Positions 9,301-37,471 of a stretch of DNA of 64,000 nt are shown one piece after another. This DNA comes from Escherichia coli. GTDB taxonomy: Bacteria; Pseudomonadota; Gammaproteobacteria; Enterobacterales; Enterobacteriaceae. The stretch lies in NCBI RefSeq assembly GCF_003018255.1, contig NZ_CP027440.1; one strand, written 5' to 3'. Both the position numbers and the translations under genes were made by a program. The notes under the pieces were generated by a model. It did no database searches. It saw nothing but the letters and a program-made list of their open reading frames with translations, and was not told the DNA's origin. Each line of letters starts with the position of its first letter. Within the stretch, counting starts at the first letter, position 1.

Positions 9301-10357
9301 GGTTCTGCTCCTGTTGCAGACGTTTGAGTAGCTCCAGTTCGGCCTGGAAATCGACGTAGTGCGGGAGTTTAAGGTGCGAGACAAAGCCTGCGGCTTCGAC
9401 GTTGTCGGCATGCGCCAGCACGAACTCTTCATCCTGCGCCGGGCCTGTCGCGTGCTCGCCGTACTCCGGGGCTTGTAGAGCGCGGTCAACCAGCGCCATC
9501 GCCATCGCTTTGCGCTCGCTCATGCCGAACACCAGCCCGTAGCCGCGCGTGAAGTGCGGCGGCTCATCCGGCGGGTCGATAAAACCGTTGACCATTTCAC
9601 ATTCGGTCATCAGCAGTTCGCCGACGTTCACCGCAAATCCCAGCTCTTCCGGCACAATCGACACGTCGATATAGCCGCTGCGGATTTCGCCTGCGAACGG
9701 ATGATTGCGTCCGTAACCACGCTGGGTGGAGTAGGCCAGCGCCAGCAAATAGCCTTCGTCGCCGCGCATTAATTGTTGCAGGCGGGAGGAGCGTGAGCAG
9801 GGGTAAACCGGCGGCGTGCGGGTGATGTCGTCCGGCTGTGCGCCGCTATCTTCTTCAAACTTCGCCAGCCCCTGACGCGCCAGCAGGCTGAAAACGTGCG
9901 GCGACGGCTGTTGTTCGCTGTCGGCTGTGGTCAGCGTCGGCGCTTCGCCGTTTGCCAGCAGGGTGAAATCGAGCAGGCGATGGGTGTAGTCGTAGGTTGG
10001 GCCAAGCAGCTGGCCGCCGGGAATGTCTTTATAAACCGCCGAAATACGGCGTTCGAGCCGCATCTCCGTGGTGTCGAGCGGCTCGCTCACCGCCAGCTTT
10101 GCCAGCGTCGTGCGGTAGGCGCGCAACAGGAAAATCGCTTCAACGTTATCGCCGCTGGCCTGTTTCAGCGCCAGTGCCGCCAGCTCACGGTCGGCAATGC
10201 CGCCTTCGGTCATCACGCGATCTACCGCGAGGTTAAGCTGCTGTTCAATCTGGGCGACGCTCAGTTCGGGTAAATCGGTATCGCCCCGGCGTCGGCTCTC
10301 TTGCAGGGCGTGGGCGGCGTCGATCGCCTTCTCGCCCCCTTTCACGGCAACGTACAT
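9293..10357 (-). CDS. phnI: C-P lyase core complex subunit PhnI
   Basis: ORF track 9293..10477; start at MYVAVKGG (354 aa); ATGA overlap with the phnH stop. Confidence 0.9.
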   Translation of the reverse strand: MYVAVKGGEKAIDAAHALQESRRRGDTDLPELSVAQIEQQLNLAVDRVMTEGGIADRELAALALKQASGDNVEAIFLLRAYRTTLAKLAVSEPLDTTEMRLERRISAVYKDIPGGQLLGPTYDYTHRLLDFTLLANGEAPTLTTADSEQQPSPHVFSLLARQGLAKFEEDSGAQPDDITRTPPVYPCSRSSRLQQLMRGDEGYLLALAYSTQRGYGRNHPFAGEIRSGYIDVSIVPEELGFAVNVGELLMTECEMVNGFIDPPDEPPHFTRGYGLVFGMSERKAMAMALVDRALQAPEYGEHATGPAQDEEFVLAHADNVEAAGFVSHLKLPHYVDFQAELELLKRLQQEQNHG

Positions 10358-10941
10358 CAGCACACCTCCACATGAGTGGTTCGCGGGATAGCCAGCAGGC
10401 GCTCGCCGCAGGTCAGGATCAGGTCGATGCCGAGCGGGAACGGGTGCGGGCGCTCGGTAAGTTCGTGCAGAATGCACTCTGGCAGCTGCGGGGCGATCAT
10501 TCGTTCTTCGGCAATACCCGCGCCAGTAAGGCGCAGCATGCGCCCGCCGCTCAGGCTGACGACCTGTAAAATCAGCGTCGCGCCCGCTTCTGGCGCAACA
10601 GCGGTGCCGCTGGAAAGGGCGTTAAGCTGTTCGCTGGAAATCGCCTCATCCGTTACCGCGAAGGTCGCCAGTTCCGGCTGATTGACCAGCGGCGCGTTGG
10701 TATGAAAACGCAGGCTCTGGCTGACGATATCGTTACTTAATGGCGCAGAAAGCCACACCGGCGTGTCGTTATCGGCCAGCGTCAGCAGCACGCTGGTGGT
10801 GGCGATATTCAGCGGCTGCCAGCCGCGTTTGAGCTGATGCAGGGCGACAATCACGCCCGGCTCGCTCATGGCTTTTAACAGGCGACGAAAACTGTGCTGG
10901 GCATCCTGCACGGGAAGCATAAAAGCGGTTTCCAGGGTCAT
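10357..10941 (-). CDS. phnH: C-P lyase core complex subunit PhnH
   Basis: 194-aa ORF, phn synteny. Confidence 0.85.
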
Positions 10942-19690: not shown

Positions 19691-21193
19691 ATGCTGAAAA
19701 GGAAAAAAGTAAAACCAATTACCCTTCGTGATGTCACCATTATTGATGACGGTAAACTGCGTAAAGCCATTACCGCAGCATCACTGGGTAATGCAATGGA
19801 ATGGTTTGATTTTGGTGTTTATGGTTTTGTTGCTTACGCATTAGGTAAAGTTTTTTTCCCGGGGGCTGACCCCAGCGTGCAGATGGTTGCTGCACTTGCC
19901 ACTTTCTCCGTTCCCTTTCTGATTCGACCGCTTGGTGGACTCTTCTTTGGTATGTTGGGCGATAAATATGGTCGCCAGAAGATCCTCGCTATCACTATTG
20001 TGATTATGTCGATCAGTACGTTCTGTATTGGCTTAATACCGTCCTACGACACGATTGGTATTTGGGCACCGATTCTGCTGTTGATCTGTAAGATGGCACA
20101 AGGTTTCTCGGTCGGCGGTGAATATACCGGGGCGTCGATATTTGTTGCGGAATACTCCCCTGACCGTAAACGTGGCTTTATGGGCAGCTGGCTGGACTTC
20201 GGTTCTATTGCCGGGTTTGTGCTGGGTGCGGGCGTGGTGGTGTTAATTTCGACCATTGTCGGCGAAGCGAACTTCCTCGACTGGGGCTGGCGTATTCCGT
20301 TCTTTATTGCTCTGCCGTTAGGGATTATCGGGCTTTACCTGCGCCATGCGCTGGAAGAGACCCCGGCGTTCCAGCAGCATGTTGATAAACTGGAGCAGGG
20401 CGACCGCGAAGGTTTGCAGGATGGCCCGAAAGTCTCGTTTAAAGAGATTGCCACCAAACACTGGCGCAGCCTGTTGACATGTATTGGTCTGGTAATTGCC
20501 ACCAACGTGACTTACTACATGTTGCTGACCTATATGCCGAGTTATTTGTCGCATAACCTGCATTATTCCGAAGACCACGGGGTGCTGATTATTATCGCCA
20601 TTATGATCGGTATGCTGTTTGTCCAGCCGGTGATGGGCTTGCTGAGTGACCGTTTTGGCCGTCGTCCGTTTGTGCTACTTGGTAGTGTTGCACTGTTTGT
20701 GTTGGCGATCCCGGCGTTTATTCTGATTAACAGTAACGTCATCGGCCTGATTTTTGCCGGGTTACTGATGCTGGCGGTGATCCTTAACTGCTTTACGGGC
20801 GTTATGGCTTCTACCTTGCCAGCGATGTTTCCGACGCATATCCGTTACAGCGCGCTGGCGGCGGCATTTAATATTTCGGTGCTGGTTGCCGGTCTGACGC
20901 CAACACTGGCGGCCTGGCTGGTCGAAAGCTCGCAGAATCTGATGATGCCTGCCTATTACCTGATGGTAGTGGCGGTGGTTGGTTTAATCACCGGCGTAAC
21001 CATGAAAGAGACGGCAAATCGTCCGTTGAAAGGTGCGACACCGGCGGCGTCAGATATACAGGAAGCGAAGGAAATTCTCGTCGAGCATTACGATAATATC
21101 GAGCAGAAAATCGATGATATTGACCACGAGATTGCCGATTTGCAGGCGAAACGTACTCGCCTGGTGCAGCAACATCCGCGAATTGATGAATAA
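19691..21193 (+). CDS. proP: proline/glycine betaine:H+ symporter (MFS, C-terminal coiled coil)
   Basis: ORF track 19658..21193; start at MLKRKKVKP (ATG 19691); 12-TM MFS. Confidence 0.9.
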   Translation: MLKRKKVKPITLRDVTIIDDGKLRKAITAASLGNAMEWFDFGVYGFVAYALGKVFFPGADPSVQMVAALATFSVPFLIRPLGGLFFGMLGDKYGRQKILAITIVIMSISTFCIGLIPSYDTIGIWAPILLLICKMAQGFSVGGEYTGASIFVAEYSPDRKRGFMGSWLDFGSIAGFVLGAGVVVLISTIVGEANFLDWGWRIPFFIALPLGIIGLYLRHALEETPAFQQHVDKLEQGDREGLQDGPKVSFKEIATKHWRSLLTCIGLVIATNVTYYMLLTYMPSYLSHNLHYSEDHGVLIIIAIMIGMLFVQPVMGLLSDRFGRRPFVLLGSVALFVLAIPAFILINSNVIGLIFAGLLMLAVILNCFTGVMASTLPAMFPTHIRYSALAAAFNISVLVAGLTPTLAAWLVESSQNLMMPAYYLMVVAVVGLITGVTMKETANRPLKGATPAASDIQEAKEILVEHYDNIEQKIDDIDHEIADLQAKRTRLVQQHPRIDE

Positions 21194-21304
21194 GCTGAAA
21201 CGGATGGCCTGATGTGACGCTGTCTTATCAGGCCAATTGAACTCTTAAGGTTCACTTAATCTCTGACGCGCATACTCTCCTCCAGGTTAACGGAGGAGAG
21301 TGCA

Positions 21305-21394
21305 ATGAAAAACCGTGTTTATGAAAGTTTAACTACCGTGTTCAGCGTGCTGGTGGTCAGCAGCTTTCTTTATATCTGGTTTGCCACGTTCTGA
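21305..21394 (+). CDS. pmrR: 29-aa membrane peptide PmrR, convergent with and overlapping the basS 3' end
   Basis: atg at 21305 to tga at 21392-21394 encodes MKNRVYESLTTVFSVLVVSSFLYIWFATF; not in ORF track because shorter than 60 aa. Confidence 0.7.
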   Translation: MKNRVYESLTTVFSVLVVSSFLYIWFATF

Positions 21395-22470
21395 TCTTTC
21401 TTCAGCCGTACCCAGGCCCGCGTGCCGGAAGTCTCTTGCCGGTTTTGCAGGAAAAACTGCCCGTGATGCAACTGTGTAATGCGGCTGACAATACTTAACC
21501 CCAGACCAATCCCGCCATAACGGCTGTCCATACGTACAAACGCTTTACTCAACTCCCCGCATTTACTCTCATCAATACCCGGTCCTTCATCTTCAACGGC
21601 CATGACCGCTCCGCCATCTTCTTGCAGCTTAATCATAATGTTGCTGCCTTGCGGGCTGTAACGATGGGCGTTTTCTACCAGGTTTCGCAATAACATCCGC
21701 AGCAGGGTTGCATCACCCTGAACGGTGATGTCGGCGGCGCTCTCTGGCAATAGCAGGTTTTGCTGTCGCTGGTCGAGCATGGTACTGAGTTCGTCATACG
21801 AGGGGAGAATGACATCTTCCAGCAGTTTTACATGTTGATAATTACCGGAAGAAAATGACTGTCCGGCACGCGCCAGTTGCAGCAGCTGGGAGACACTCTC
21901 CATCATCTGATCAAGTCGAGCCACTAACGGTGCTACATCAATGTGATGCGTTTTCGCCAGCAGTTCCAGATGCAAACGCACCCCCGCCAGTGGCGTTCGC
22001 AGTTCGTGCGCGACGTCAGCGGTAAACAACCTTTCGTTATCCAGCGTGCTGGTCAGGCGACTGACCAGATCGTTCAACGCCGAAACCACCGCTTCGATTT
22101 CGAGGGTGGCGCTGTGAATGGCAATAGGCGTTAAGTTGTCGGCGGTGCGCGCTTCCAGCTCTTTTTGCAGCTCCGCCAGCGGCCGGGTGATGCGGCGTAC
22201 CGCCTGATAGCAGATAAATAGCGTCAGGCTGACCATAAAGACGCCGGGGACGATCAGGCTGGCGACCGCCTCGCGGATCTCACGCATGATGTGGCGATCG
22301 TTGTTGCGATTGTCGCGTAGCGCCTGCTCAAACAGCTGAATCTGCTCGGTACTTTCATGCCATAGCCAGAAGACGCTGATCAGCTCAAACACCAACAAAA
22401 TGGCCCCAATGGTCAATATCAGCCGTTGGCGCAGCGATATTGGTCGGCGCAGAAAACGCATCAGATTCAA
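21370..22470 (-). CDS. basS: sensor histidine kinase BasS/PmrB
   Basis: 366-aa ORF with H-box HELRTPL and ATPase domain; upstream of basR. Confidence 0.9.
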   Translation of the reverse strand: MNLMRFLRRPISLRQRLILTIGAILLVFELISVFWLWHESTEQIQLFEQALRDNRNNDRHIMREIREAVASLIVPGVFMVSLTLFICYQAVRRITRPLAELQKELEARTADNLTPIAIHSATLEIEAVVSALNDLVSRLTSTLDNERLFTADVAHELRTPLAGVRLHLELLAKTHHIDVAPLVARLDQMMESVSQLLQLARAGQSFSSGNYQHVKLLEDVILPSYDELSTMLDQRQQNLLLPESAADITVQGDATLLRMLLRNLVENAHRYSPQGSNIMIKLQEDGGAVMAVEDEGPGIDESKCGELSKAFVRMDSRYGGIGLGLSIVSRITQLHHGQFFLQNRQETSGTRAWVRLKKDQNVANQI

Positions 22471-23139
22471 TTAGTTTTCCTCATTTGCGACCAGCATATA
22501 GCCAAAGCCGCGCACGGTGCGGATACGGGCTTTGCCCACTTTGTCGCGCAGATTGTGGATATGCACTTCCAGGGTGTTGGTCGAGGGTTCATTGTCCCAG
22601 TTATAGATGTCGTTGTAGAGAATTTCCCGATGCACCGGACTGCCTGCTTTGAGCATTAACCGTGACAGCAGAGCATATTCTTTGGGCGTCAGAATCAACT
22701 CTTCACCGCCCATCCATACCTGACGGCGACCCATATTCAGCGTCAGATTGCCAACAATCAGCTCACTTTCGCCCTGATTATTATGGCGTCGTAGCAGGGC
22801 GCGGATACGGGCGTGTAACTCTTCCAGCGCAAAAGGCTTCACCAGATAGTCATCGGCACCGACATCCAGCCCGGCGATTTTGTCGGTCAGCGTATCGCGA
22901 GCGGTGAGGATCAGTACCGGCAGGGTGTATTTTTTCTGCCGGATACGGGCGAGAAAATGCAGTCCATCTTCGTCGGGTAACCCTAAATCCAGTACCACCA
23001 GGCTGTAATGACCGGCCTCAAGGCTTTGTTCCGCCATCCGCGCGGTTGTCACGCCATCGCACGCGTAGCCTTCGGTTTGCGCCGCCAGAATTAATCCCTG
23101 CAATAACAGCGTATCGTCTTCAACAATCAGAATTTTCAT
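22471..23139 (-). CDS. basR: OmpR-family response regulator BasR/PmrA
   Basis: 222-aa ORF, receiver plus winged-helix domains. Confidence 0.9.
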
Positions 23140-24779
23140 TCACTCACTCTCCTGCAAGTTTGCAGAATATCATCCGCAGCCTGGTAATACTTCGTCTCAA
23201 CGCCAGTTAATCCCAATAGCGTGGAGAATAAATTATCTTGTGAATAGTGTTGCGTTTGCGCCTGTTTTTGCAGGCAGTTCTGGTCAACCTGATACCGTTT
23301 TTGATAATCCTCCGACAGCCACAGCAGCATCGGCACCTGTTTTTGGCTATCCGGGGCGATGGCATAAGGCAGACCGTGCAGATAGATGCCATTTTCACCT
23401 AACGACTCACCGTGGTCAGAAAGATAAACCAGGCTGGTGGTAAATTTATCCTGATGTTCTTTCAGCAGATTAATCGCTTTATCAACAATATAGTCGACGT
23501 AAACCAGCGTGTTGTCGTAAGTGTTCACCAGTTGCTCTTTGGTACAGGTCTGGATCTCGTTAGTGTCACAGGTTGGGGTAAATTTCCTGAACTGCGGCGG
23601 ATAGCGGTTGTAATAGGTCGGACCGTGGCTGCCGATGGTGTGTAAGACAATCACGCCATCACCCTGCAGGTTATTGATGTACTCTTCCAGCCCGTGGAAC
23701 AGCACTTCGTCATAGCATTCGCCGTTGATGCACTGACCTGGCAGATTCAGCGCGGTGACGTTCTGGTGAGGTACGCGATCGCAAACGCCTTTACAGCCGC
23801 CATCGTTGTCATTCCACAGCACGTTGATGCCCGCTCGCTGAATGATATCCAGCACGCCTTCCTGGTGCTGTGCCAGCTCTTCTTTGTAGTGCTCACGCGG
23901 CATATCCGAGAACATGCATGGTACTGAAACTGCCGTTGCCGTGCCGCAAGAGGCGGTATTAGGGAAATAGACCACGTTATCTTTTGCCAGACGAGGATTG
24001 GTTTCGCGTGGATAACCATTCAGCGAGAAATTCTCTGCGCGCGACGTTTCTCCGACGATCAAAATGGTCAGGTTTTTACGTTTCCCATTTTGCATTAATG
24101 GGTTGCGGTGAGCATCTTCACCAATGCGTATCAGTGGCAGGTTGGCTGACCGCTGGTGAGAGTACCACGACCAGCTAGCAACAATGCTGTTGGACGGGCT
24201 TAAGGATTTCACCAGCTCTTTGTTGTTGCGAAACAGCGAGGCATAGTCTTTGTAGAACAGTGCGGCAACCAGCAGAATCAGCAGTACAGAAATCAGGATG
24301 TTGGCCCCGCGGAAAAGAACGCTGCGCAGGCGTGAGGTGGTGGGGGTGATTTTGATCCAGCAGGCAATAATCGCGGCTAACACGCCACTTAACCCCAGCG
24401 TTAATAACATTCGTGGCGTCATCAGGGCATAACTTTCCGCCGGCGTAGTATCAATGATATTGGTGATCATTGAACGGTCGATGACGATGCCATAGGTCAT
24501 GATGAAATATTGTGCAGCCGCACCGACCAGAATAAACAGGCAGGCGAGTGGACGATTAAGCCATAAGAAAGAGCCTAGTGTCAGGACAATATTAATCACG
24601 CTGAATGCGACGACCGGCATCGACAAGAAAACCAGCACGTTATGCAGTGAATCCAGCGGTAACACCTGTAGCACCTGTTTAAAAAAGGCGATATTCAGGC
24701 AGACTGAGATATAAAAAGTAGCAAGTAATAACCAGGAGAATAAATTTAAAGAGGGTCTTTTTAGTAGGCGCTTCAACAT
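23136..24779 (-). CDS. eptA: lipid A phosphoethanolamine transferase
   Basis: ORF track 23136..24824; start at [14 protein letters not shown] (547 aa); N-terminal TM domain plus sulfatase-like domain. Confidence 0.9.
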
Positions 24780-24882
24780 CACGGTGTTTCCATCGAACAA
24801 AGTGCGCATATGCTCGCAAAGCAAAATTAAGCCAACCTTAAGTTCTTAAGGTTGGCTTTTATGTTTGCTTGATTAAGGGGAA

Positions 24883-26220
24883 TTAATCTTTGCTTATTGG
24901 TGCATCTAAGGGATACGGGTTTTTATGCAGCCGGTTGTAATTCAGCGCATACATGGCGGTGATTACCATCAGAGTGACAAATGACCACATAACCTCTTTC
25001 GCGCCGGACCCTACCACGGCCCAGATGCAGTAGAGGAAGGCAATGGTAGTCACTGCCAGGTATGCCGGGCGTGCTTTACCAAAGTGACCGTGGCCGAGCA
25101 GTAGTAACGCCGCACAGGTGTAAAGATATGGCACCAGTGTAAAGATGACCGACACGGAAGAAACCAGACCGAATTCTTTGGTCGCGTTTGGCGAAATGCT
25201 ACTGAGCTGGAAGATGGTCATCAAAATACCGACGATAATCAGCCCCGCCACTGGCGTGCCCGCTTTATTAACACGGGCAAAAATCGGTGGGAACAGTCCG
25301 TCATCGGCAGCGGCTTTCGCCGTTTGACCCGCCAGCAACGTCCAGCCGCCCAGTGAACCTAAGCAACCCGCAGCTGCGCAGAAGGAAACAATGGCCCCGG
25401 CGGTGTCACCCAACGCCATCCGTGCGGCATCACCGAATGGCGAAGCAGAAACGCGCAGTGCGGCATTAGGGATCATCCCCATAATCGCGGTGGTAGAAAG
25501 TACATAGCAAACGGCAGCAATCAATACCCCGCCAATGGTGGCGATAGGGACGTTGCGTTTCGGGTTTTTCACCACACCTGCGGCAACGGAGGCACTTTCC
25601 ACACCGATGAACGACCACAGCGTAACGTTAAGGGTACTTTGAATCGCACCGAAGGTGCCCAGACCGCTGACGTTCCATGCCGCCATATAGGTTTCACCAC
25701 GGAACCAGAACCAGCCAAATACGGCAATCCCGACGATGGGGATCAGCGCCAGCACGGTAGCAACGGCCTGTACGCGGGTGATCATTTTCGGACCGACAAT
25801 GTTCAGCAGGACGAAGATCCACAGCACCACGACGCAGGTGATGGTTAATACCAATGGGTCTTTCAGAATCGGGAAGAAGTAACTTAAATATCCTACGCCA
25901 ATGACCACCATGGCGATATTGCCGATCCAGCAGGCCAGCCAGTAGAGGACGTTGGTTTGATAACCGAGAAACGGGCCAAAGCAGCGGCGGGCGTAAGCGT
26001 AAGAACCACCAGGACTTGGGTCGAGGAACGACATTTTGGCGTATACCATCGAGAGCCCCAGCGCACCGATAATCGTCACCAACCATCCATAAATGGCAAT
26101 CCCGCCAGTGGAGGCCAGGTTTGCAGGTAACAGAAAAACACCTGACCCCATAATATTCCCCGACACCATCAGGGTGACGGGGATTAAGCCCACTTTGTGA
26201 GCATCAGCATCCGAAGACAT
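24883..26220 (-). CDS. adiC: arginine:agmatine antiporter (APC family)
   Basis: 445-aa polytopic ORF; adi locus synteny. Confidence 0.9.
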
Positions 26221-26356
26221 AATTAAACTCCTGCGAAGGCGAGCTTCGTGACAATAAATTACGTCGTATCATACGCCTGCATTCGATAGTTGAATTATTA
26301 TCGGCCGGGTTATCGCTGATGCCGTTATTAATATAGCTCTTCGTTAAGGTTAAAAA

Positions 26357-27118
26357 TCAGGCGACAGTGCGTTCTCTGTGCTGACTAACATAATGCAGCG
26401 GCGTCATACCGTAGAAGTCTTTAAAGACAGAAATAAAGTACGACGTACTGTTGTAGCCGCAGGACTGTGATACCTGAGAGATATTTTTACCGTCCATCAT
26501 TAATTCATTTACGGCATAGCGCATGCGGCAGGTGGTGATTATTTGGCTATAACTGGTGTTTTCGCTTTTCAGCTTTTTCTTTAACAGACTTGGGCTAAGA
26601 CATAAACAACTGGCTACCATACTAAGATTCCAGTCTTTGTGGATATCGCTTTCAATAATTTGATAAACGCTGTCACTTACACAATTACGTAACATATACA
26701 TCATTAGTGAAAGGAATTTTTTACTGTCGAGAAAACGGGATAGCACAGTGAATAATAATGCACGTGTTCGTTCCTTTTCTGACTCAGTTTCAGCGGGCAT
26801 CATGCTATGTTGCGCGGCAACGCGAAAGACGTCTGGCGTCAGGCATGGAAGGGTGAGGATGGGCGTAGCGCTACGTTGCCATACTGGTATTTGCGAGAGA
26901 TCTTTATTCAGAAACCGGAGGTAATCTTTGATGATGTCGTGACTAATATGAGCAACCAAAGTGTTATTAAGAGAGGAGACGTCGATAATATTATTTTCAC
27001 AATTTAATAACGCCATATGGTTAGCTTTAAGGCTAATAGGTTCTTTCCCATTCACCCTTATCCAGACATCTTTTTCAGTCAATAAAACAATACAAGGTTG
27101 GTCGCTGCAAATCCTCAT
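26357..27118 (-). CDS. adiY: AraC-family regulator AdiY
   Basis: 253-aa ORF with C-terminal AraC HTH. Confidence 0.85.
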   Translation of the reverse strand: MRICSDQPCIVLLTEKDVWIRVNGKEPISLKANHMALLNCENNIIDVSSLNNTLVAHISHDIIKDYLRFLNKDLSQIPVWQRSATPILTLPCLTPDVFRVAAQHSMMPAETESEKERTRALLFTVLSRFLDSKKFLSLMMYMLRNCVSDSVYQIIESDIHKDWNLSMVASCLCLSPSLLKKKLKSENTSYSQIITTCRMRYAVNELMMDGKNISQVSQSCGYNSTSYFISVFKDFYGMTPLHYVSQHRERTVA

Positions 27119-27454
27119 ACATGTACTCCTGAGTGCGAATAAAAGACCAGTTCTCGCTAAAGCGAAGCGATACCGGGAAATGGTTATATAATTGTATGAT
27201 GAATATAAACATGCATAAAAATAACGAGTTTTACTAATATTACAAATTTTTATAGTAATTTCTCATGTACATATTTTTTTACAGGCTAAAAAAAGGATAA
27301 ATAACAGGCAAAAAAAAAGCGCGGGGTGGGACCGCGCAAAAAGTATGACATTTTTTGTTTGCAGCAATTTTTATGAAAACGTTGCCATACTTAAAAGGCC
27401 TCAAGCCAGGCGGCGTAATGTTATTTAACAATTACGCCTTCAGCGGAATAGTGG

Positions 27455-29725
27455 TTACGCTTTCACACACATAACGTGGTAAATACCGTCAATAATTTCT
27501 GTCCCTTCTGTTTCGTGTTCAAATCCAGGGAAATGATGGTCCCAGGATTGCAGCGAGCGTAAATAACTTACTTGCGGACTGTTTTTATCGCCGAAGTTTT
27601 CACCAGACAGCAGCATCGGGATTCCTGGCGGATACGGGATAACTGAGTTTGCCGCGATACGTCCTGGCAGATTTTCAATGGATACCAGTTCGACATTGTT
27701 GTCGACAATCGCGTTGTACGCTTCACGCGGGGTGATTTCCGCCACCGGCAGGCCGGAATAGGCTTCGTTCAACCGTGCGCCAGGGTTGTTTTCTTTCAGC
27801 CAGGCAAACATGGTGTCACCCAGATCGTGAATCCCCATGTTCGCGTAAGTGTCAGGATATTGTTCAACAAGTTCCGGCATCACCTGCGCCAGCGGTGTGT
27901 TGGCGTCATAGTGGCGTTTGAAGGAGCAAAGGGTGTTAACCAGAGTCCCCCATTTCCCACGGGTTACGCCCATAGAGAACAGGAACATAATTTGGAAGTC
28001 AGTGGTGCGGGTAGGCACAATGCCGTGGCGACCAAGCCAGGCAGTGACCAGCGCCGCCGGAACACCGGTTTCTTCCAGTTCACCATCTTCACCCATTCCC
28101 GGAGCAAGGATGCTGACTTTAATCGGGTCGAGCATACTCCAGTTATCCGGAATATCTTTGAAGCCGTGCCAGCTTTCGCCCGGATGCATTACCCAGCAGT
28201 CCTGAACGGTGGTCAGCAGTTTGGTTGGTGCGTCAGCAAAGTCATAGGTTTTGCCGGTTTGTGGGTCGGTGACGACTTCTTTGTTCCACGGTTTGAAGAA
28301 CCAGCTACCGTCAGCGGTGAACTCTTTATACAGCCGCGCCATCGCCTGACGAAAATCAACCGCTTCGTCGATCACTTCCTGCGTCAGTGACAGGCCGCTG
28401 TTGCCGTCCATCATCGACACCGCCACGTCGTTGGATGCGCAGATGGCATACAGCGGGGAGGTGGTGGCATGCATCATGTAGGCCTGGTTGAAGCGGGAGA
28501 AGTTAATCGCCCCACGACCTTCACGTACATGAATATAAGAGGCCTGTGACAGTGCATTCAGCAGTTTGTGGGTGGAGTGGGTGGCGAAAACGGTAGGACC
28601 GTTGTGATCGCCAGGTTCGCCGCGCATGGCATAGTGATCGGCATAGATCGGGTTGAAACGTGCATAGCCGTACCAGGCTTCGTCAAAGTGCAGACGATCG
28701 GAGGTTTTTTCCAGCAGATCCTGCGCTTCTTTAGCGTTATAACACACGCCGTCATAAGTACAGTTGGTCACCACGCAGTAAGACGGTTTTTGCCCGGCTT
28801 TGTCTTTAGTCAGCGGGCTTTCACTGATTTTCTTCTGCAAGGTTTCAGGTTGCATTTCCTGCGGATAGATTGGCCCGATAATGCCGTAGCGGTTGCGGCT
28901 TGGCACCATGTAGACCGGTTTCGCGCCTGTCAGCATCAAGCCTTGTTCGATGGATTTATGGCAGTTACGGTCAACGACCACGACATCGTTATCGGTCATG
29001 CAAGCCTGCATGATAGTGCGGTTAGAGCCGGAAGTACCGACGACTACCGACCAGGAGCGATCGGCACCAAATACGCGTGCGGCATATTTTTCGCTTTCGC
29101 CAAATGCGCCAGTATGGTCAAGCAAAGAACCGAGGGAAGTGCGTTCGATGCCCATGTCGGTGCGGAACAGATTTTCACCATAGTAGTCATGGTAGAAACG
29201 TCCGGCGGGTGTTTTGGTAAAACCAACGCCACCCTGGTGGCCTGGCGCTGCCTAGGAATATTCATGGATGTCGCTATATTTCATCAGCGCGCTGAACAGT
29301 GGCGGCAACAGTTGCTGGCGGTAGCGGGTCATCGCGGCAACGGCGCGTCCGGCGATAAAGTCGGCGGTATCTTCCAGAATCCAGGCGAATTCATCGACAA
29401 GCTCCAGCAGATCCCGGTCCATTGCGGCGAGGGCTTTTTCCCGATCGCCCAACAGGAAGACCGGCACGTTTTGTTGGCGCTCATGAAGCTTACCGATCAA
29501 TTGTCTGACGTTTTGATGTTCGTCCGGATGTTCCATTTGATAGCTGAACATCAGGCAGTCAATGGCTTCGTTTGAAGAGAGAATGGCAAAACCATCATCA
29601 AAGGAGGTGGATTTAATCACGGTAACATTTTGCTGGCTTAAAGCATCTGCCAGACGCTCAACGGCGTTACCGACCCAGGTGTCTTGATGGAGAAACTCGC
29701 TTTCAACAATTAATACTTTCATCAT
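27455..29725 (-). pseudogene. adiA: biodegradative arginine decarboxylase interrupted by one in-frame amber codon (plus-strand cta at 29252-29254)
   Basis: ORF track splits the gene into 29252..29725 (N-terminal 157 aa) and 27455..29155; both lie in the same frame with only TAG between ...SDIHEYS and AAPGHQGG... Confidence 0.7.
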
Positions 29726-29920
29726 TGCTTACCCGGTTATGAAGGAATCTTCGTTGCGGGCAAGTATCTTCCGGCCTTTTCGGGCTGTAAAGCGCGTGAA
29801 AAACAAACATTTTTGAAATATTTGTTTTTATAAACAATATGTTATGTGATTATTTTAAATTATTTCCACTGCTTATTATCGACGGCTAAACTATTTTTTT
29901 GGCTGATACTGATATCGTCT

Positions 29921-30829
29921 TTAGCCGGGAAACGTCTGGCGGCGCTGTTGGCTAAGTTTGCGGTATTGTTGCGGTGACATGCCGACATATTTGCCGAACG
30001 TGCTGTAAAAACGGCTACTCGAACGAAAGCCTGCCGTCAGGGCAATATCGAGAATACTTTTATCGGTATCGCTCAGTAACGCGCGAACGTGGTTGATGCG
30101 CATCGCGGTAATGTACTGTTTCATCGTCAATTGCATGACCCGCTGGAATATCCCCATTGCATAGTTGGCGTTAAGTTTGACGTGCTCAGCCACATCGTTG
30201 ATGGTCAGTGCCTGATCATAGTTTTCGGCAATAAAGCCCAGCATCTGGCTGACATAAAATTGCGCATGGCGCGAGACGCTGTTTTTGTGTGTGCGCGAGG
30301 TTTTATTGACCAGAATCGGTTCCCAGCCAGAGAGGCTAAATCGCTTGAGCATCAGGCCAATTTCATCAATGGCGAGCTGGCGAATTTGCTCGTTCGGACT
30401 GTTCAATTCCTGCTGCCAGCGGCGCACTTCAAACGGGCTAAGTTGCTGTGTCGCCAGTGATTTGATCACCATGCCGTGAGTAACGTGGTTAATCAGGTCT
30501 TTATCCAGCGGCCAGGAGAGAAACAGATGCATCGGCAGATTAAAAATCGCCATGCTCTGACAGGTTCCGGTATCTGTTAGTTGGTGCGGTGTACAGGCCC
30601 AGAACAGCGTGATATGACCCTGATTGATATTCACTTTTTCATTGTTGATCAGGTATTCCACATCGCCATCGAAAGGCACATTCACTTCGACCTGACCATG
30701 CCAGTGGCTGGTGGGCATGATATGCGGTGCGCGAAACTCAATCTCCATCCGCTGGTATTCCGAATACAGCGACAGCGGGCTGCGGGTCTGTTTTTCGTCG
30801 CTGCTGCACATAAACGTATCTGTATTCAT
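29921..30829 (-). CDS. melR: AraC-family melibiose operon regulator
   Basis: 302-aa ORF, C-terminal AraC HTH; divergent from melA. Confidence 0.9.
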   Translation of the reverse strand: MNTDTFMCSSDEKQTRSPLSLYSEYQRMEIEFRAPHIMPTSHWHGQVEVNVPFDGDVEYLINNEKVNINQGHITLFWACTPHQLTDTGTCQSMAIFNLPMHLFLSWPLDKDLINHVTHGMVIKSLATQQLSPFEVRRWQQELNSPNEQIRQLAIDEIGLMLKRFSLSGWEPILVNKTSRTHKNSVSRHAQFYVSQMLGFIAENYDQALTINDVAEHVKLNANYAMGIFQRVMQLTMKQYITAMRINHVRALLSDTDKSILDIALTAGFRSSSRFYSTFGKYVGMSPQQYRKLSQQRRQTFPG

Positions 30830-31111
30830 GGATGGCTCTCTTTCCTGGAATATCAGAATTATGGCAGGAGTGAGGGAGGATGACTGCGAGTGGGAGCACG
30901 GTTTTCACCCTCTTCCCACAGCGGCGAGGGGAGCGTCCGAGCATCATGAGGCCGAAAACTCTGCTTTTCAGGTAACTTATTCCCATAAACTCAGATTTAC
31001 TGCTGCTTCACGCAGGATCTGAGTTTATGGGAATGCTCAACCTGGAAGACGGAGGTTTTCTGCAGATTCGCCTGCCATGATGAAGTTATTCAAGCAAGCC
31101 AGGAGATCTGC

Positions 31112-32164
31112 ATGATGTCTGCACCCAAAATTACATTTATCGGCGCTGGTTCGACGATTTTCGTTAAAAATATTCTTGGTGATGTGTTCCATCGCGAGGC
31201 GCTGAAAACGGCGCATATTGCCCTGATGGACATTGATCCCACCCGCCTGGAAGAGTCGCATATTGTGGTGCGCAAGCTGATGGATTCAGCAGGGGCCAGC
31301 GGCAAAATCACCTGCCACACCCAACAGAAAGAAGCCTTACAGGATGCCGATTTTGTCGTGGTGGCATTTCAGATTGGCGGTTATGAACCTTGCACGGTGA
31401 CTGATTTCGAGGTCTGTAAGCGGCATGGTCTGGAACAAACCATTGCCGATACGTTGGGGCCGGGCGGTATTATGCGCGCGCTACGTACCATTCCGCATCT
31501 GTGGCAAATTTGCGAGGACATGACGGAAGTCTGCCCCGATGCCACCATGCTCAACTACGTTAACCCAATGGCGATGAATACCTGGGCGATGTATGCCCGC
31601 TATCCGCATATCAAACAGGTAGGGCTGTGCCATTCGGTGCAGGGAACGGCGGAAGAGCTGGCGCGTGACCTCAATATCGACCCGGCTACGCTGCGTTACC
31701 GTTGCGCAGGTATCAACCATATGGCGTTTTACCTGGAACTGGAGCGCAAAACCGCCGACGGCAGTTACGTGAATCTCTACCCGGAACTGCTGGCGGTTTA
31801 TGAAGCAGGGCAGGCACCGAAGCCGAATATTCATGGCAATACTCGCTGCCAGAATATTGTGCGCTACGAAATGTTCAAAAAGCTGGGCTACTTCGTCACG
31901 GAATCGTCAGAACATTTTGCTGAGTACACGCCGTGGTTTATTAAGCCAGGTCGTGAGGATTTGATTGAGCGTTATAAAGTACCGCTGGATGAGTACCCGA
32001 AACGCTGCGTCGAGCAGCTGGCGAACTGGCATAAAGAGCTGGAGGAGTATAAGAACGCCTCCCGGATTGATATTAAACCGTCACGGGAATATGCCAGCAC
32101 AATCATGAACGCTATCTGGACTGGCGAGCCGAGTGTGATTTACGGCAACGTCCGTAACGTATAG
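31112..32164 (+). pseudogene. melA: alpha-galactosidase, 5' fragment (about 349 codons) truncated by prophage insertion
   Basis: GH4 N-terminus MMSAPKITFIGAGS; the frame ends ...IYGNVRNV* exactly where prophage-end sequence begins; full-length MelA is recalled as about 451 aa. Confidence 0.8.
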
Positions 32165-32260
32165 CGCGGCGATTTTTTTGATACCGATTTGCATTTCATT
32201 TGATACCGCTGAAAAACGCCGATACGCAACTTATTTGATACTAAATCGGCGCTTTTCTTT
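32165..32260. repeat. prophage right-end terminal region with three direct TTTGATAC(C/T) repeats; candidate transposase-binding sites
   Basis: Repeats at 32177, 32199 and 32234 plus a GAAAAACGC motif, immediately inside the melA junction. Confidence 0.45.
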
Positions 32261-32287
32261 TGAGTTTTAGAATGAGTTTTTAAGCGC

Positions 32288-33025
32288 TCATTCACTCTCT
32301 TTCAAACCAGTTTTAACTGTTTGTGGTTTTGGGTAAGGCTGGACTTTGAATAGCTTTGTGTTGAGGCGTTTTCTGGCCCTCTTGTTCAGAAACCGGATGT
32401 AACGAAACTGTCGGAACTTATGCACACTGGCTCTGTCGATATTAGCCCTCAGATGTTCACCTCGTTGTCCGCCTCGTTTAATGGCACTCCTGCAAATCTC
32501 GTGATACCACTCGCCATCAAGTTCATAGAATGTTGATTCATGGCTGCCTACATAATCAAAATTGCTTGCCTGATACACGACACCAAGACAGCCACAACGC
32601 TCATCTGCAAACGACTGAACCCACTGTACCTGCGGATAAAGCTGCCTGATTAGCTTGAGCGCGTAACTGATTGCCCTTGATTCGGAGTTTCTCGGCATAC
32701 AGTCATGCATCCATAGCCGGTTAAGCTCCATATATTCTCGGTTCTGCGTACCCGTTACGACGCGTGCACCACTGTTTGGGTTAAGGGCGTAACCCCATTG
32801 CATTACGCCAACAAGTTCCCGTTCTGAAAATATACCCAGATGAAGGTAGGAATTATTTACGAAACGGTGGCTGTAATGTTTATTGACGATAACCAGTCTG
32901 GCCAGCCAGCAACTTATTGTCTCAACCCGCAACTCACGGGAGCCATAACCAACGATATTGTCGTTATAGCGAATAAGTTCAGGCGTGCTGATGATACGGG
33001 ATGTGACTTGCTTTCTGTTCCCCAC
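32288..33025 (-). CDS. mom: Mom-like DNA modification (adenine carbamoylmethylation) protein
   Basis: 245-aa ORF overlapping the 3' end of a com-like gene, last gene before the prophage end as in Mu; true start probably internal. Confidence 0.6.
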
Positions 33026-33179
33026 GACAGGATTTCCTTGTGTATGTGGGGTGCTCTGTGGCGCTCGGAGATGTGATTTGATTGAGGGTTTTACAGCGCG
33101 GACATTTTACTTCCAGATAACTGAAACTGGCCCGTGCCAGTAGCTTATTGCAGTGTCGGCACCGTATGTTTCGATACAT
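32979..33179 (-). CDS. com: Com-like zinc-finger translational activator of mom
   Basis: [14 protein letters not shown]...EVKCPRCKT... aligns with Mu Com (IRCKNCNKLL...IRCPRCK) from memory; overlaps the mom start. Confidence 0.7.
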
Positions 33180-33585
33180 GGCCGCATAACCTCCTGCTTT
33201 GTTGTTGATGCCTTTCTCATGCAATCGATCGACAAAAACGATCGATTCGATTTGTTTAATTGATACAACAAATAGATTTAAAAGTCATCAACAATGATTC
33301 AGGGCGGTGATTATTTACTTAAAGAAACGAAGAGTTAGGTGGTGAAAACGATCATAAAATGATCATTTTATTGACTTTTTATACAGTGAAGGTAGGATCG
33401 CGCGTATATGTAGTATGTTTCAAATCAACAGGATACTACATAAAAGGGAAACCCAGCATAGCTGGAACTATGCTGGGTCAATCTGTAAAAACTTGCATCA
33501 ATGCTTTACTTCGAGCTCGTGGCGTATCCTATGATATTCCCCGGTCTCCTGTAAAGCAGAGATGCATAAAAAGGAGATCTTTATC
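33180..33585. promoter_or_regulatory. AT-rich divergent control region upstream of com-mom with five GATC sites (33227, 33240, 33350, 33361, 33396)
   Basis: GATC density well above the roughly 1 per 256 bp expected by chance; position matches the methylation-sensitive region upstream of mom in Mu. Confidence 0.45.
33452..33477 (-). terminator. 10-bp-stem hairpin followed on the minus strand by a T-rich run
   Basis: cccagcatag ctggaa ctatgctggg; minus-strand downstream sequence tttcccttttta. Confidence 0.45.
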
Positions 33586-33756
33586 ATGGATAAAGAGCCT
33601 GTTTGCCCTGCCTGTAAGACTCCCTTACAGCTCATCTATCGCCGTTCTCGATCTCAAAATGGCAAGACATACAAACCAAAAAATGCTTCCTGTTTCAGGA
33701 TGCTGATATGTCCTGCCTGTTCTCCCCGGAGGGAAAATACACAAAACGTGCATTAA
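33586..33756 (+). CDS. small zinc-ribbon protein (CPAC...CPAC), the only plus-strand gene in the prophage part
   Basis: ATG 33586 preceded by AAGGAG at 33571-33576; MDKEPVCPACKTPL...MLICPACSP; ORF track 33562..33756. Confidence 0.45.
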   Translation: MDKEPVCPACKTPLQLIYRRSRSQNGKTYKPKNASCFRMLICPACSPRRENTQNVH

Positions 33757-33794
33757 CAAATTCACCCGGCAGGGAAACCTGCCGGTCGGTATTG

Positions 33795-34040
33795 TTACAT
33801 CATAGTACCGTCAGTTCCGGGTTGAACCGGCTCTGGTTGCTCTACGGGTTGAGGCTCATTTTCCGTGCTGTTTTCAGCCGGAGAACGACCAACCATTCGG
33901 GCCAGCACTTCATCAACATATGCGTCGATTTGTGCCTCAAAATCCTTGCGAACCTGCGCCTTCAGCACGCGGTTCACTTCTTCAGAATAAAGTGCCTGTT
34001 TGACAAGCTCTTCAGTAACCGTGCCTTTAATCTCTGGCAT
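33795..34040 (-). CDS. hypothetical acidic 81-aa protein
   Basis: ORF with AGGAG RBS upstream of ATG; no recognisable motif. Confidence 0.45.
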   Translation of the reverse strand: MPEIKGTVTEELVKQALYSEEVNRVLKAQVRKDFEAQIDAYVDEVLARMVGRSPAENSTENEPQPVEQPEPVQPGTDGTMM

Positions 34041-34075
34041 GAATATTCTCCTTTCCTTTTCTGGTTCACAAAAAA

Positions 34076-34255
34076 TTAAATCTGACCGGAGTCTTTCGGC
34101 TGCGGCATTACAGCACCGCTTTTTATCTTTTCCTCGGCAGCTGCATCAATTTTATTTCGAAAATAATTGCGAATAATTTTATAACCACCGCTGACAAGCA
34201 ACAGACAACAAACCACCGTGCAGAAATACAGCAGGCAGACGTTTATATATGTCAT
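34076..34255 (-). CDS. hypothetical 59-aa single-pass membrane protein
   Basis: MTYINVCLLYFCTVVCCLLLVSGGYKIIRNYF... read from the minus strand, GAGG RBS; below the ORF-track length cutoff. Confidence 0.4.
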   Translation of the reverse strand: MTYINVCLLYFCTVVCCLLLVSGGYKIIRNYFRNKIDAAAEEKIKSGAVMPQPKDSGQI

Positions 34256-34312
34256 ATAAGCCTCACTCTTATTAACTGATGTTACAGCCGGATAAATTCC
34301 CGGCCGTCACGA

Positions 34313-36361
34313 TTATGCCGCAGGGGTATTAACCTCAAGGACAACGCTCTCAAAAGACACGCCATAAGTTGCCCCTTTGGTGACATCTGTCAGTGTCAGC
34401 GTATCTTTGGCAGGGGAAAGTGCATCTTTCACCATCTGGAATGCCTGGCCCGGAGTGCCATCCAGCACAGGCGTTACCTGGGCACTTCCCGCCGTAAACT
34501 TCAGGACAAGTGTATGCCACTGGTTATTGTAGGCTCCAAATGATCCCAGTTTCGTATTCCCCCCTGTTTTATGGTGCATCAGATTTAACTGGCCGCCTGT
34601 TGTCTGGAGATAATACGCCATCAGGAACGGTGTGCCTGTACCACTCATGGTTACACCTTCCGGGACCGTATCGGTGTGGAGGTAAATACCCAGAGCAAAC
34701 TGGCCTTCTTTTACTTCACCTGACAGACGGAATTTACAGGTCAACTGACCACCATGCTTCAGAAGTTCACCGGCTGCATCAGTTCCATGGGTAAGCGTCC
34801 AGGTTTTTCCGCTTTGTTTGGATACGGTCAACGCTTTACCTTCGTCCGTCAGCTGGATTGTACCATCTGTAATTTTCCAGCCCTGAGCCGGGGCTTCTCC
34901 TGCTGATGCTTTAAGTGAAAGCAGCGTACGGAGTGACGGGGATGTCGGATGGGGGGACTCACTGCCTCCTGGCTGACTACCTGTCGGCGCTTCCGGTTTC
35001 CCACCCGGCGCGGGCTGAGGCAGGGCTTCACCATCAGGGGCCACACCGGCAATAAATGCAGAGGTCAGACCTGCATATTTAAGAATTGCTGATGCAAAAC
35101 GATCTGAGACCAGAAAACGGCGCGCCCAGGAGCTAAAATGGGTTGCCCTGGATGCTGTTGTCCAGTTGCCATCTCCCCGTGATTCCGCACCATAATACCC
35201 GGCAGAAGCGATATCCGGGTCGTGCTCCGGCAGGTTGGTCGCGGTTTTATTACCGAACTCATCGTGCATCAGTGGAACAAAGTGAATGTTCTCGGAAGCC
35301 CGGTTTTTATATCCGCTATAAATGGTTTCATATGCCGCCGGGTTCTTCTCTTTCCAGTCATAGGTTGTGTCACCACATAACCACGGCACACTGTCTGATG
35401 AACCACCAATACACTGACCGGAGAAAGCACCAAGATCCGCACGGAATTTTTTCACCATCGCAGTAAACTGGGCACCATGCTGGGCCGGGGTCGCTTTAAG
35501 GTCTCCTTCCCCCTGAATCCATACGACAGATAACAGCACATTCTTTGGATTCGCCTCAAGTGCCGCTTTAGTTCGACTGACAAGATCCTGATACAGTGGG
35601 GTATCCACTCCCCAGCGTAGTGACGCCTCGGCTGCACCACTTGCCGGATCGAATGAGCCAACTGCGCCGGTTGTAAAAGCAGAGCCGCCACGGGCACAGG
35701 GAACCAGTAAAATCCCGGCATCAGCAGGAATCACCGGTAATACTTTTTTCGCAATATGAAGTCCCTGCCCCACACAACCATACTGCCCTTTTTTCAGGTC
35801 TGCTTTTGGATGGTTCAGCAGACTCATATTCTGAACATCATGAAGGCAGTGATCTGCTGGAATGATTTCATTGTATTTGCAGGGAATACCTCCGGGGGTT
35901 TGTGTATTCCTGCGTGCCAGCTGCATAATACGTGGATCAGGACGATCATAAGAATCCGGAAGGGGCAACCCTTCACCATAAGATGAAGCATTGGACTGGC
36001 CGGCTATAACAATCACGTAATACCAGGAAGGGGAGCTGGAAGCAGTTTCATTTCCTGACGGACGGGTATGTGTTTCAGCATTATCCCAGTCTGACGGTTC
36101 AGCAGTACCGGCAACATCAGCACTTAACGGAATGACCGCACCAATACCCGCTCCGGTAATTTCCACACTCGGATCACCGGATACTGGCCTTACCCACAGG
36201 CAATCCCGTGTATTAAAACTGATGAGACAGTCAGCAAATGTCATTCCTCCTTTTGTTTCGGCCGGAGGAAAGGGAGCCTCAAGAAATGCCGCTGTACCAC
36301 CGGAAACTTTAACAGTAAAGTTTCCGGGCATTGATGATAGTTGAACCCATTTGGACGTCAT
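34313..36361 (-). CDS. SGNH/SASA-type sialate O-acetylesterase-like protein with C-terminal beta-rich putative carbohydrate-binding domain (resembles prophage NanS-p family)
   Basis: 682-aa ORF; IAGQSNASSYG esterase signature, Pro-rich linker, about 200-aa C-terminal domain; no signal peptide. Confidence 0.55.
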   Translation of the reverse strand: MTSKWVQLSSMPGNFTVKVSGGTAAFLEAPFPPAETKGGMTFADCLISFNTRDCLWVRPVSGDPSVEITGAGIGAVIPLSADVAGTAEPSDWDNAETHTRPSGNETASSSPSWYYVIVIAGQSNASSYGEGLPLPDSYDRPDPRIMQLARRNTQTPGGIPCKYNEIIPADHCLHDVQNMSLLNHPKADLKKGQYGCVGQGLHIAKKVLPVIPADAGILLVPCARGGSAFTTGAVGSFDPASGAAEASLRWGVDTPLYQDLVSRTKAALEANPKNVLLSVVWIQGEGDLKATPAQHGAQFTAMVKKFRADLGAFSGQCIGGSSDSVPWLCGDTTYDWKEKNPAAYETIYSGYKNRASENIHFVPLMHDEFGNKTATNLPEHDPDIASAGYYGAESRGDGNWTTASRATHFSSWARRFLVSDRFASAILKYAGLTSAFIAGVAPDGEALPQPAPGGKPEAPTGSQPGGSESPHPTSPSLRTLLSLKASAGEAPAQGWKITDGTIQLTDEGKALTVSKQSGKTWTLTHGTDAAGELLKHGGQLTCKFRLSGEVKEGQFALGIYLHTDTVPEGVTMSGTGTPFLMAYYLQTTGGQLNLMHHKTGGNTKLGSFGAYNNQWHTLVLKFTAGSAQVTPVLDGTPGQAFQMVKDALSPAKDTLTLTDVTKGATYGVSFESVVLEVNTPAA

Positions 36362-36460
36362 AATAATCAGCCTGTTCCTGAATAAACTGAATTATCATAT
36401 CCACAGACCGATAAACGCCATTTTGCGTTAATTCAGTAAAGGCCCAACAAAGAGAGCGTC

Positions 36461-37021
36461 TTATTTTTCCGAAACGCTCGCAGGATAATAACGATAAAGG
36501 GTTGAAAGACCGATATCAAAAATAAGTGCCACCTGTCTTCGACTGACACCCCCGGCCAGTAAACGCCCGACCTGCTCGTATTGTTCCTGCGTGAGACGGC
36601 GGGGTCTGCCGCCGGTTCGTCCCCTTTCACGGGCAGCTGCAAGACCAGCCCGTGTCCGTTCGACAATTAATTCACGCTCCATTTCTGCCAGCGCACCCAT
36701 TATGTGAAAAAAGAAACGCCCCATGGGGGTTGACGTATCAATGTTGTCAGTAAGACTACGAAAATTTATCCCCTGTTGCTGTAATTCATCTGTCAGCGCA
36801 ACAAGGTGGCGCATACTGCGCCCCAGCCTGTCCAGTTTCCAGACCATCAGTGTGTCACCGGGTTTTAGTTTCTTCAGTGCCCGCTTCAGTCCCGGCCGCT
36901 GTGTCGTTTTACCACTCATTTTGTCTTCAAAAATCTGCTCACATCCTGCACATTCCAGCGCATTTCTTTGTAAACCGGTGTTCTGGTCATTTGTTGATAC
37001 GCGTATATAGCCAATCAGCAT
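36461..37021 (-). CDS. gin: serine DNA invertase of the Gin/Hin/Cin/Pin family
   Basis: MLIGYIRVSTNDQNTGLQRNAL...GRFFFHIMGALAEMERELI aligns closely with Mu Gin (recalled); adjacent to the invertible segment. Confidence 0.9.
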   Translation of the reverse strand: MLIGYIRVSTNDQNTGLQRNALECAGCEQIFEDKMSGKTTQRPGLKRALKKLKPGDTLMVWKLDRLGRSMRHLVALTDELQQQGINFRSLTDNIDTSTPMGRFFFHIMGALAEMERELIVERTRAGLAAARERGRTGGRPRRLTQEQYEQVGRLLAGGVSRRQVALIFDIGLSTLYRYYPASVSEK

Positions 37022-37076
37022 GTATTTACCTTCCTTAAAAAGAGGTGAAAATGCCTTTTAAAACAGATATACGGTA

Positions 37077-37102
37077 TCCCTGAAAACCTCGGTTTACGGG
37101 AA
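37077..37102. promoter_or_regulatory. gix-like recombination site, gin-proximal (crossover core TC at 37089-37090)
   Basis: tccctgaaaacc tc ggtttacgggaa matches the gix/hix consensus TTATCCAAAACC TC GGTTTACAGGAA (recalled). Confidence 0.65.
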
Positions 37103-37471
37103 ACGGTAAATAAGGCTGCTGATGCCCTGCCATCGGGTGGAACCGCCGTGGCAGCAAACAGACTCGCCACCCCAAGAAATATTAATGGCGTTCCTTTTGA
37201 CGGAACGCAGGATATCAACATCACGTCAGGAATGACGCAGTCAACCGCAGATGGCCGGTATGTACAGAATGTTCAGCTTGGAGCACAGAGCTATCATTCA
37301 CCCGGAGGCAATGAAATATCATGGAATTACAGCGCACCTTCCGGTTGTATGCTTTCCGGTATTAACGTGCAGGAAACCGGCTCCCGGTCTGCGGACAATA
37401 TCGGTGGGGTCTATTATCGCCCGGTTCAGATTTATATTAATAATGCCTGGAGAACGGTAAGTTCAGTGTAA
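37091..37471 (+). CDS. promoterless alternative tail-fibre C-terminal cassette (S'v-like) inside the invertible segment
   Basis: Open frame from the gix core: GLRETVNKAADALPSGGTAVAANRLATPRNINGVPFDGTQDINITSGMTQS... shares its first 50 codons with the expressed fibre then diverges; ORF track 37148..37471. Confidence 0.6.
   Translation, partial: GLRETVNKAADALPSGGTAVAANRLATPRNINGVPFDGTQDINITSGMTQSTADGRYVQNVQLGAQSYHSPGGNEISWNYSAPSGCMLSGINVQETGSRSADNIGGVYYRPVQIYINNAWRTVSSV

Follow-up and report, generated by a model that had tools for sequence, protein, structure and literature searches.

The question raised by this locus was whether an arginine decarboxylase gene interrupted by one in-frame stop codon represents a genuine null allele and, if so, by which route it arose and what it would mean for the strain. 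The window (the whole analysed stretch of Escherichia coli DNA, 64 kb in length) carries this gene, adiA, encoding the biodegradative arginine decarboxylase, on the minus strand between positions 27455 and 29722 (755 codons and a stop counted from the RefSeq start). With high confidence, the window adiA can be considered a real null allele of recent origin in a natural E. coli isolate.

An alternative upstream ATG of adiA is located at 29725 and gives a protein starting with MMKV instead of MKV, the start used in RefSeq and K-12. The translation of 27455–29725 on the minus strand gave 757 codons with a single internal stop (DIHEYS*AAPGHQGG) in addition to the normal terminal one, and the frame was open on either side of it. 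The minus strand around the interruption reads cat gaa tat tcc TAG gca gcg cca ggc cac cag ggt (HEYS*AAPGHQG), the plus-strand cta at 29252–29254 being the amber codon of adiA. It replaces Trp157 in the K-12 numbering, which is codon 158 when counted from the MMKV start. The position and the codon assigned to this amber by the first-pass annotation were exactly those obtained from the minus-strand translation. The list of open reading frames split adiA into a 157-aa ORF (29252–29725) and a 566-aa ORF (27455–29155).

The set used for comparison consisted of 5426 complete RefSeq E. coli genomes, in 5410 of which the 2271-nt adiA sequence was matched. The best match was found in NZ_AP025214.2 (strain 2017.09.02CC), which encodes an intact adiA product (WP_001308282.1) from a gene lying between melR and adiY-adiC. 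The two alleles are identical at 2270 of 2271 nt, and the single difference, at nt 473, is A in the window and G in the relative. The TGG to TAG change at a Trp codon, proposed earlier from the sequence alone, was the only base distinguishing the window from NZ_AP025214.2 over the whole gene, and the earlier identification of the gene as adiA was confirmed by the annotation of this intact allele one nucleotide away. The intact AdiA of NZ_AP025214.2 matched PDB 2vyc chain A over residues 1–755, and this near-identity to the solved enzyme, together with the conserved melR-adiA-adiY-adiC context, identified the gene as the AdiA orthologue.

The distribution of the two forms of the codon was examined using a 41-mer centred on the amber site, for which any 28-nt megablast seed must span the variable base. 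Of the 5426 complete E. coli genomes, 5202 contained the TGG form, which served as a positive control, and not one contained the TAG form. A 26-nt TAG-bearing pattern scanned over GTDB representative genomes gave 0 matches as well. The comparison of adiA with related strains, which had been suggested by the first-pass annotation, placed TGG both in the nearest complete genome and in the great number of genomes positive for the control.

At a larger scale, the best match to the window over 24 kb among the 5426 complete E. coli genomes showed 99.1% identity, and the chromosomal part of the window (1–32159) was collinear with its E. coli relatives at 98.6–99.3%. Two tracts in this part stood out: the phnK-phnJ tract (7792–8366), with 35 substitutions present in the window but in none of six relatives, and the phnI tract (10025–10480), with 20 such substitutions. 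The private changes fell mostly in third codon positions, the encoded proteins being 98.8–99.6% identical, and both tracts look, from the sequence, like imported recombinant segments.

The stop codon was also present in one further public record. This was a Logan contig of SRA run SRR8931299, found by an exact-sequence look-up of the 350-aa product of a melA::prophage fusion located in the window (described below), the only other public record returned. The contig, which contains the TAG 41-mer, aligns to window positions 21111–37116 without a mismatch, one homopolymer indel being the sole difference. The SRR8931299 assembly was built separately from k-mers; the run could stem from the same isolate or even be the source data of the window, and it is counted as read support and not as a second isolate. 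The homopolymer at 27302–27310 is 9 A long in the window and 8 A long in the six relatives, as it is in the SRR8931299 assembly, which indicates that neither assembly was copied from the other; the extra A probably reflects a homopolymer error of the assembly or else a harmless variant in length. The other chromosomal genes that were checked (32/32) were full length, free of stops and frameshifts, which argues against a low-quality assembly.

The predicted N-terminal product of the interrupted gene (29255–29722, minus strand; 156 aa, or 157 aa from the upstream ATG) has PF03709 (OKR_DC_1_N, residues 18–134, E = 2e-26) as its sole Pfam domain. The downstream open frame (27455–29155, minus strand; 566 codons from the first in-frame ATG after the TAG) matched profile positions 51–416 of 417 of PF01276 (E = 2e-164) and PF03711 (E = 3e-43). 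Across both fragments, the PF03709 wing domain, the PF01276 major PLP domain and the PF03711 C-terminal domain followed one another in order. The uninterrupted 755-aa frame of the Orn-Lys-Arg decarboxylase family is broken by the TAG at codon 157, and adiA was therefore filed as a pseudogene of the family and not as a functional member. With a sense codon in the orthologues and a stop reproduced in the SRR8931299 assembly and in at least 13 other samples (see below), it is a nonsense pseudogene.

Translation would end after 156 residues, giving the wing domain without the PLP-binding catalytic core. Translation of the 566-codon frame was considered and rejected. No Shine-Dalgarno-like sequence was found by eye in the 20 nt before its ATG, and the frame is devoid of the start of the major domain; judged by these features, it is probably not translated. 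Since the N-terminal fragment comprises the wing domain only, the loss of arginine decarboxylase activity and of arginine-dependent acid resistance (AR3) is the likely phenotype, and the strain is predicted to be without AR3 while the regulator AdiY and the antiporter AdiC remain.

Both neighbours had been described as intact, which was borne out. The adiY gene, encoding the adi transcriptional activator (26357–27118, minus strand; 253 aa), and the adiC gene, encoding the arginine/agmatine antiporter (24883–26220, minus strand; 445 aa), are full length, and their products are 100% identical to AdiY and AdiC of the intact relative NZ_AP045067.1. The intrinsic terminator of adiA (27310–27337, minus strand) consists of a GC stem-loop and a T-run, with 9 T here and 8 in the relatives and the SRR8931299 assembly; this T-run, the plus-strand A-run at 27302–27310, forms the 3' end of the AdiZ-homologous region. 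In Salmonella, RNase E releases the sRNA AdiZ from the adiA 3'UTR; AdiZ lacks a dedicated promoter, and homologues have been reported for Escherichia–Shigella (bioRxiv 10.1101/2025.06.06.658255). It is speculative that the early adiA stop could lower the AdiZ homologue through polarity. The Rfam scan of the adi region gave nothing at threshold. A consensus scan also matched a GC hairpin (GCCACC-AGGG-TGGC) followed by a T-rich stretch inside adiA (29241–29228, minus strand), 10 nt downstream of the TAG; the number of such hairpin and T-stretch matches in the adi region was not above the shuffled expectation.

The base change lies in a former Dcm site. The plus-strand sequence at 29252–29256 is CTAGG in the window and CCAGG in all six relatives, with the changed base at 29253 being the inner C, and the 32-kb chromosomal part contains only 5 CTAG tetramers, including the one thus created. 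In the ancestral coding strand of adiA, TCC TGG GCA contains CCTGG. The context is that of a Dcm hotspot, i.e., an ancestral CCWGG with a C-to-T change at the inner C. Dcm methylates the inner cytosine of CCWGG, and the deamination of 5-methylcytosine yields thymine, which is a classic route to amber mutations in E. coli; G:C-to-A:T transitions are, in any case, the commonest spontaneous change. CCWGG sites are established hotspots of G:C-to-A:T changes (PMC13250602, PMC10710837). In the proposed course of events, 5-methylcytosine at the inner C of the non-coding strand would have deaminated to T, escaping very-short-patch repair, and this single G:C-to-A:T transition would have turned the TGG of Trp157 into TAG. 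The origin of the adiA amber by deamination at the Dcm site is probable on the strength of this motif, with Dcm activity in the strain taken as an assumption, as the dcm and vsr genes are outside the 64-kb window.

The adiA gene contains 17 Dcm sites, 10 of which are amber-capable. Alleles retrieved via the 566-aa fragment carried three distinct nonsense changes, W115*, W158* and Q164* (MMKV numbering), and all three (3/3) were changes of a Dcm inner C, although within codons 1–189 such changes are 4 among 63 possible nonsense substitutions, or among 17 transitions. Counted as raw contigs, the predicted fragments gave a mean of 97 per Dcm codon (nine codons) and of 51 per non-Dcm codon (twelve codons; one-sided p = 0.08), a comparison confounded by contig-end cuts. 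Exact look-ups of truncated proteins return many genes cut at contig ends, often beside common SNPs (e.g., adiA nt 414), and fragment contig counts therefore overstate nonsense alleles unless the places are inspected one by one. For blocks with the longest fragment contig of at least 10 kb, the counts were 95 for W158, 46 for W225 and 49 for W351 among the Dcm codons, compared with 7 for W475, 16 for W511 and 15 for Q138 among the non-Dcm ones, many of which are not true stops; this cleaned comparison involves three codons on each side. Two observations count against the hotspot: of the 8 stops at the Dcm codon W225, 3 were TGA, a change not of the Dcm type, and the synonymous counterpart of the W157 amber change (nt 471, opposite strand of its Dcm site) was found in 0 of the 5426 genomes. 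The hotspot reading has a good basis in chemistry and sequence context, but the excess recurrence at Dcm sites over non-Dcm sites was only suggestive.

The same amber was found in public data outside the complete E. coli set. The exact 157-aa N-terminal fragment was present on 196 public contigs, some of them labelled Shigella boydii by the NCBI submitters, and the exact 566-aa downstream fragment on 42. A TAG at this adiA codon was confirmed in 14 retrieved loci from at least 13 samples, including the complete genomes CP026836.1, CP026845.1 and CP026877.1. These public TAG haplotypes differ from that of the window at 19–27 positions and from each other at 3–31. Four TAG alleles (the window, L016, L012 and L020) are mutually 16–31 nt apart, and L016, L012 and L020 each have complete E. 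coli genome partners scoring as a one-mismatch TGG match; for L016 and strain 118UI, the sole mismatch was checked and is nt 473. Four diverged TAG alleles, each one step from its own TGG allele, imply at least four independent origins.

The group comprising CP026836.1, CP026845.1 and CP026877.1 shares 99.6% identity with the closest E. coli allele. In this S. boydii-type group, L022 carries the same TAG followed by a frameshift and an extra stop, and L023 the same TAG followed by a stop at codon 519; these further lesions in two members indicate that the adiA pseudogene is older there. Other knockouts of adiA were also noticed in public records. A W115* and Q164* double amber (nt 344 and 490, both Dcm sites) occurs in loci L009, L010 and L018. 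An 8-bp deletion, CCAGGCCA, at adiA nt 481–488, between two direct CCAGG repeats and only 8 nt downstream of the TAG position of the window, occurs in loci L011, L013 and L014. Apart from the deletion in L011 and the TAG in L012, these two loci have an identical adiA haplotype. Further nonsense alleles comprise W225*, W351*, W475* and W511*. Null alleles of adiA appear to segregate at low frequency across E. coli and to be fixed in the S. boydii-type group. The searchable literature on adiA pseudogenes, stop codons and Shigella gave no description of the W157* allele.

Such recurrence could be read as a sign of positive selection, with the knockout being an adaptive loss of AR3 and not a neutral or mildly deleterious recent accident. 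The independent origins of one amber, at least four or five in number, speak for it, as do the other independent knockouts (W115* with Q164*, the 8-bp deletion, W225*, W351*, W475* and W511*), the finding of two different lesions on the single haplotype shared by L012 and L011, and the apparent fixation of the TAG with secondary decay in the S. boydii-type group. However, the TAG stays rare, being present in 0 of the 5426 complete E. coli genomes, and among hundreds of thousands of sequenced isolates one would expect to meet any nonsense change of the transition type a few times in a dispensable gene; nonsense alleles outside the hotspots were also seen. Selection for the loss is thus judged unlikely. 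Still more doubtful is the wider proposal in which adiA would be a repeated target of adaptive loss in some E. coli and Shigella niches, its ten amber-capable Dcm sites acting as one-step 'off' positions and W157*, W114* and Q163* (K-12 numbering) being convergent and selected.

A recent accident being preferred, it could have happened in the window lineage itself or been brought in by recombination from a TAG-bearing lineage, e.g., of the S. boydii type. The occurrence of the same TAG in other lineages and the visibly mosaic character of the region, with divergent tracts in phnK-J and phnI, would suit an import. It is nevertheless highly improbable, because at adiA nt 414 and nt 495 every TAG allele sampled has a base other than that of the window, and the window matches the intact H1 allele at each of the remaining 2270 positions. 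The differences at nt 414 and 495 flank the TAG, and an imported tract would therefore need to be at most 80 nt long.

With a de novo origin retained, the amber might still be read through, by a suppressor tRNA encoded elsewhere or by efficient natural read-through, leaving adiA functional. The lack of a second lesion in the gene, as if it were under selection, agrees with this, but it is equally expected of a very recent mutation 1 nt from an intact allele. Amber suppressors are rare in natural isolates, and no tRNA gene was found in the 64-kb window, including the prophage. The stop is absent from the 5426 complete E. coli genomes, and the secondary lesions following the TAG in L022 and L023 indicate that it is not tolerated as a sense codon there. 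Read-through sufficient to keep adiA working is accordingly very hard to credit.

A sequencing or assembly error, with G as the true base and adiA intact, is essentially excluded: the amber site lies in a Dcm motif, where systematic nanopore errors are known to occur, which would allow a long-read miscall, and the A9 versus A8 run at 27302–27310 hints that the assembly is not error-free, but the TAG recurs in the SRR8931299 assembly with 0 substitutions over 16 kb, the 32 neighbouring genes are without a frameshift or stop and the identical change is present in many unrelated public assemblies. A systematic artefact of base calling at methylated Dcm sites was ruled out, since 83 of the 84 ancestral CCWGG sites in the chromosomal 32 kb are kept and the amber site is the only one with an inner-C-to-T change relative to the six relatives (1/84). 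The first-pass annotation had held that the stop could equally be a sequencing error; this option, largely refuted by the reproduction of the TAG in SRR8931299, is countered also by the same amber in at least 13 other public samples and by the single changed site among 84.

A second knockout is present within 3 kb of the first in the same strain. The melA gene (31112–32164) is interrupted by a Mu-like transposable prophage, with the junction at 32159/32160. MelA is cut after residue 349 of 451, and a 350-aa fusion ORF is unique to the junction, which was found in 0 of the 5426 complete E. coli genomes. The prophage spans 32160–64000, to the window end, and is at least 31.8 kb long. Near the junction, it carries genes for Mom (32288–33025, minus strand), a DUF6645/SASA tail-fibre-like protein (34313–36361) and a Gin-type invertase (36461–37021), as well as baseplate genes. 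Over its first 9.8 kb, it shows 100% identity to a prophage of E. coli strain War; identity is approximately 88% to the 'Mu-like phage' inserts carried within Stx phages and only about 72%, over 0.6 kb, to Mu, D108 and SfMu. In the closest relatives (L001/L003, NZ_AP025214.2, and L005, NZ_AP045067.1), yjdF directly follows melA and no melB is annotated, whereas melB is present in the more distant relatives L006–L008. In this lineage, the melibiose operon may therefore already have lacked a part when the prophage inserted into melA. Like the Dcm context of the amber site and the recurrence of the amber in other lineages, the melA knockout was absent from the first-pass annotation.

Altogether, the adiA amber is a real but ordinary pseudogene, of an allele already in public records and of a kind that is textbook. 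The gene is best annotated as a pseudogene and not as two 'hypothetical proteins'. The amber matters for strain-level phenotype prediction and annotation only and opens no new question.

The change can be set beside several known systems. In 1978, Coulondre et al. reportedly traced the amber hotspots of lacI to CCAGG Dcm sites, arising from 5-methylcytosine deamination. The adiA amber shares with these hotspots, and with CCWGG spectra (PMC13250602), the motif, the inner C and the amber outcome. Unlike the lacI CAG to TAG changes, the methylated C in adiA would be on the non-coding strand, giving TGG to TAG, and the adiA amber was seen in natural isolates, whereas those in lacI came from a selected laboratory collection. 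It thus offers a clean natural case of a methylation-site amber arising repeatedly on different backgrounds.

The loss of the cad lysine decarboxylase in Shigella and EIEC is described as a pathoadaptive 'black hole' (cited in PMC3143133 and PMC4229854). Both cad and adiA show the recurrent inactivation of an acid-inducible amino-acid decarboxylase in E. coli and Shigella; however, cad loss is near-universal in Shigella, with an experimentally shown virulence benefit, whereas losses of adiA are sporadic and the gene is expressed in S. flexneri (PMC4229854).

The public W157* alleles (CP026836.1, CP026845.1 and CP026877.1; EFZ8619250.1 / ESA97602.1, Shigella boydii) have the same codon change and 157-aa and 566-aa frames identical to those of the window. 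Their haplotype is 21–24 nt from the window allele, and some members carry secondary lesions, in contrast to the window TAG, which is of separate origin on an E. coli background with intact neighbouring genes. Compared with K-12 AdiA (PDB 2VYC), the window has the same gene in the same locus (melR-adiA-adiY-adiC-eptA) with the same PF03709, PF01276 and PF03711 domains, but its frame is broken at codon 157, and the wing domain would be the sole product of normal translation.
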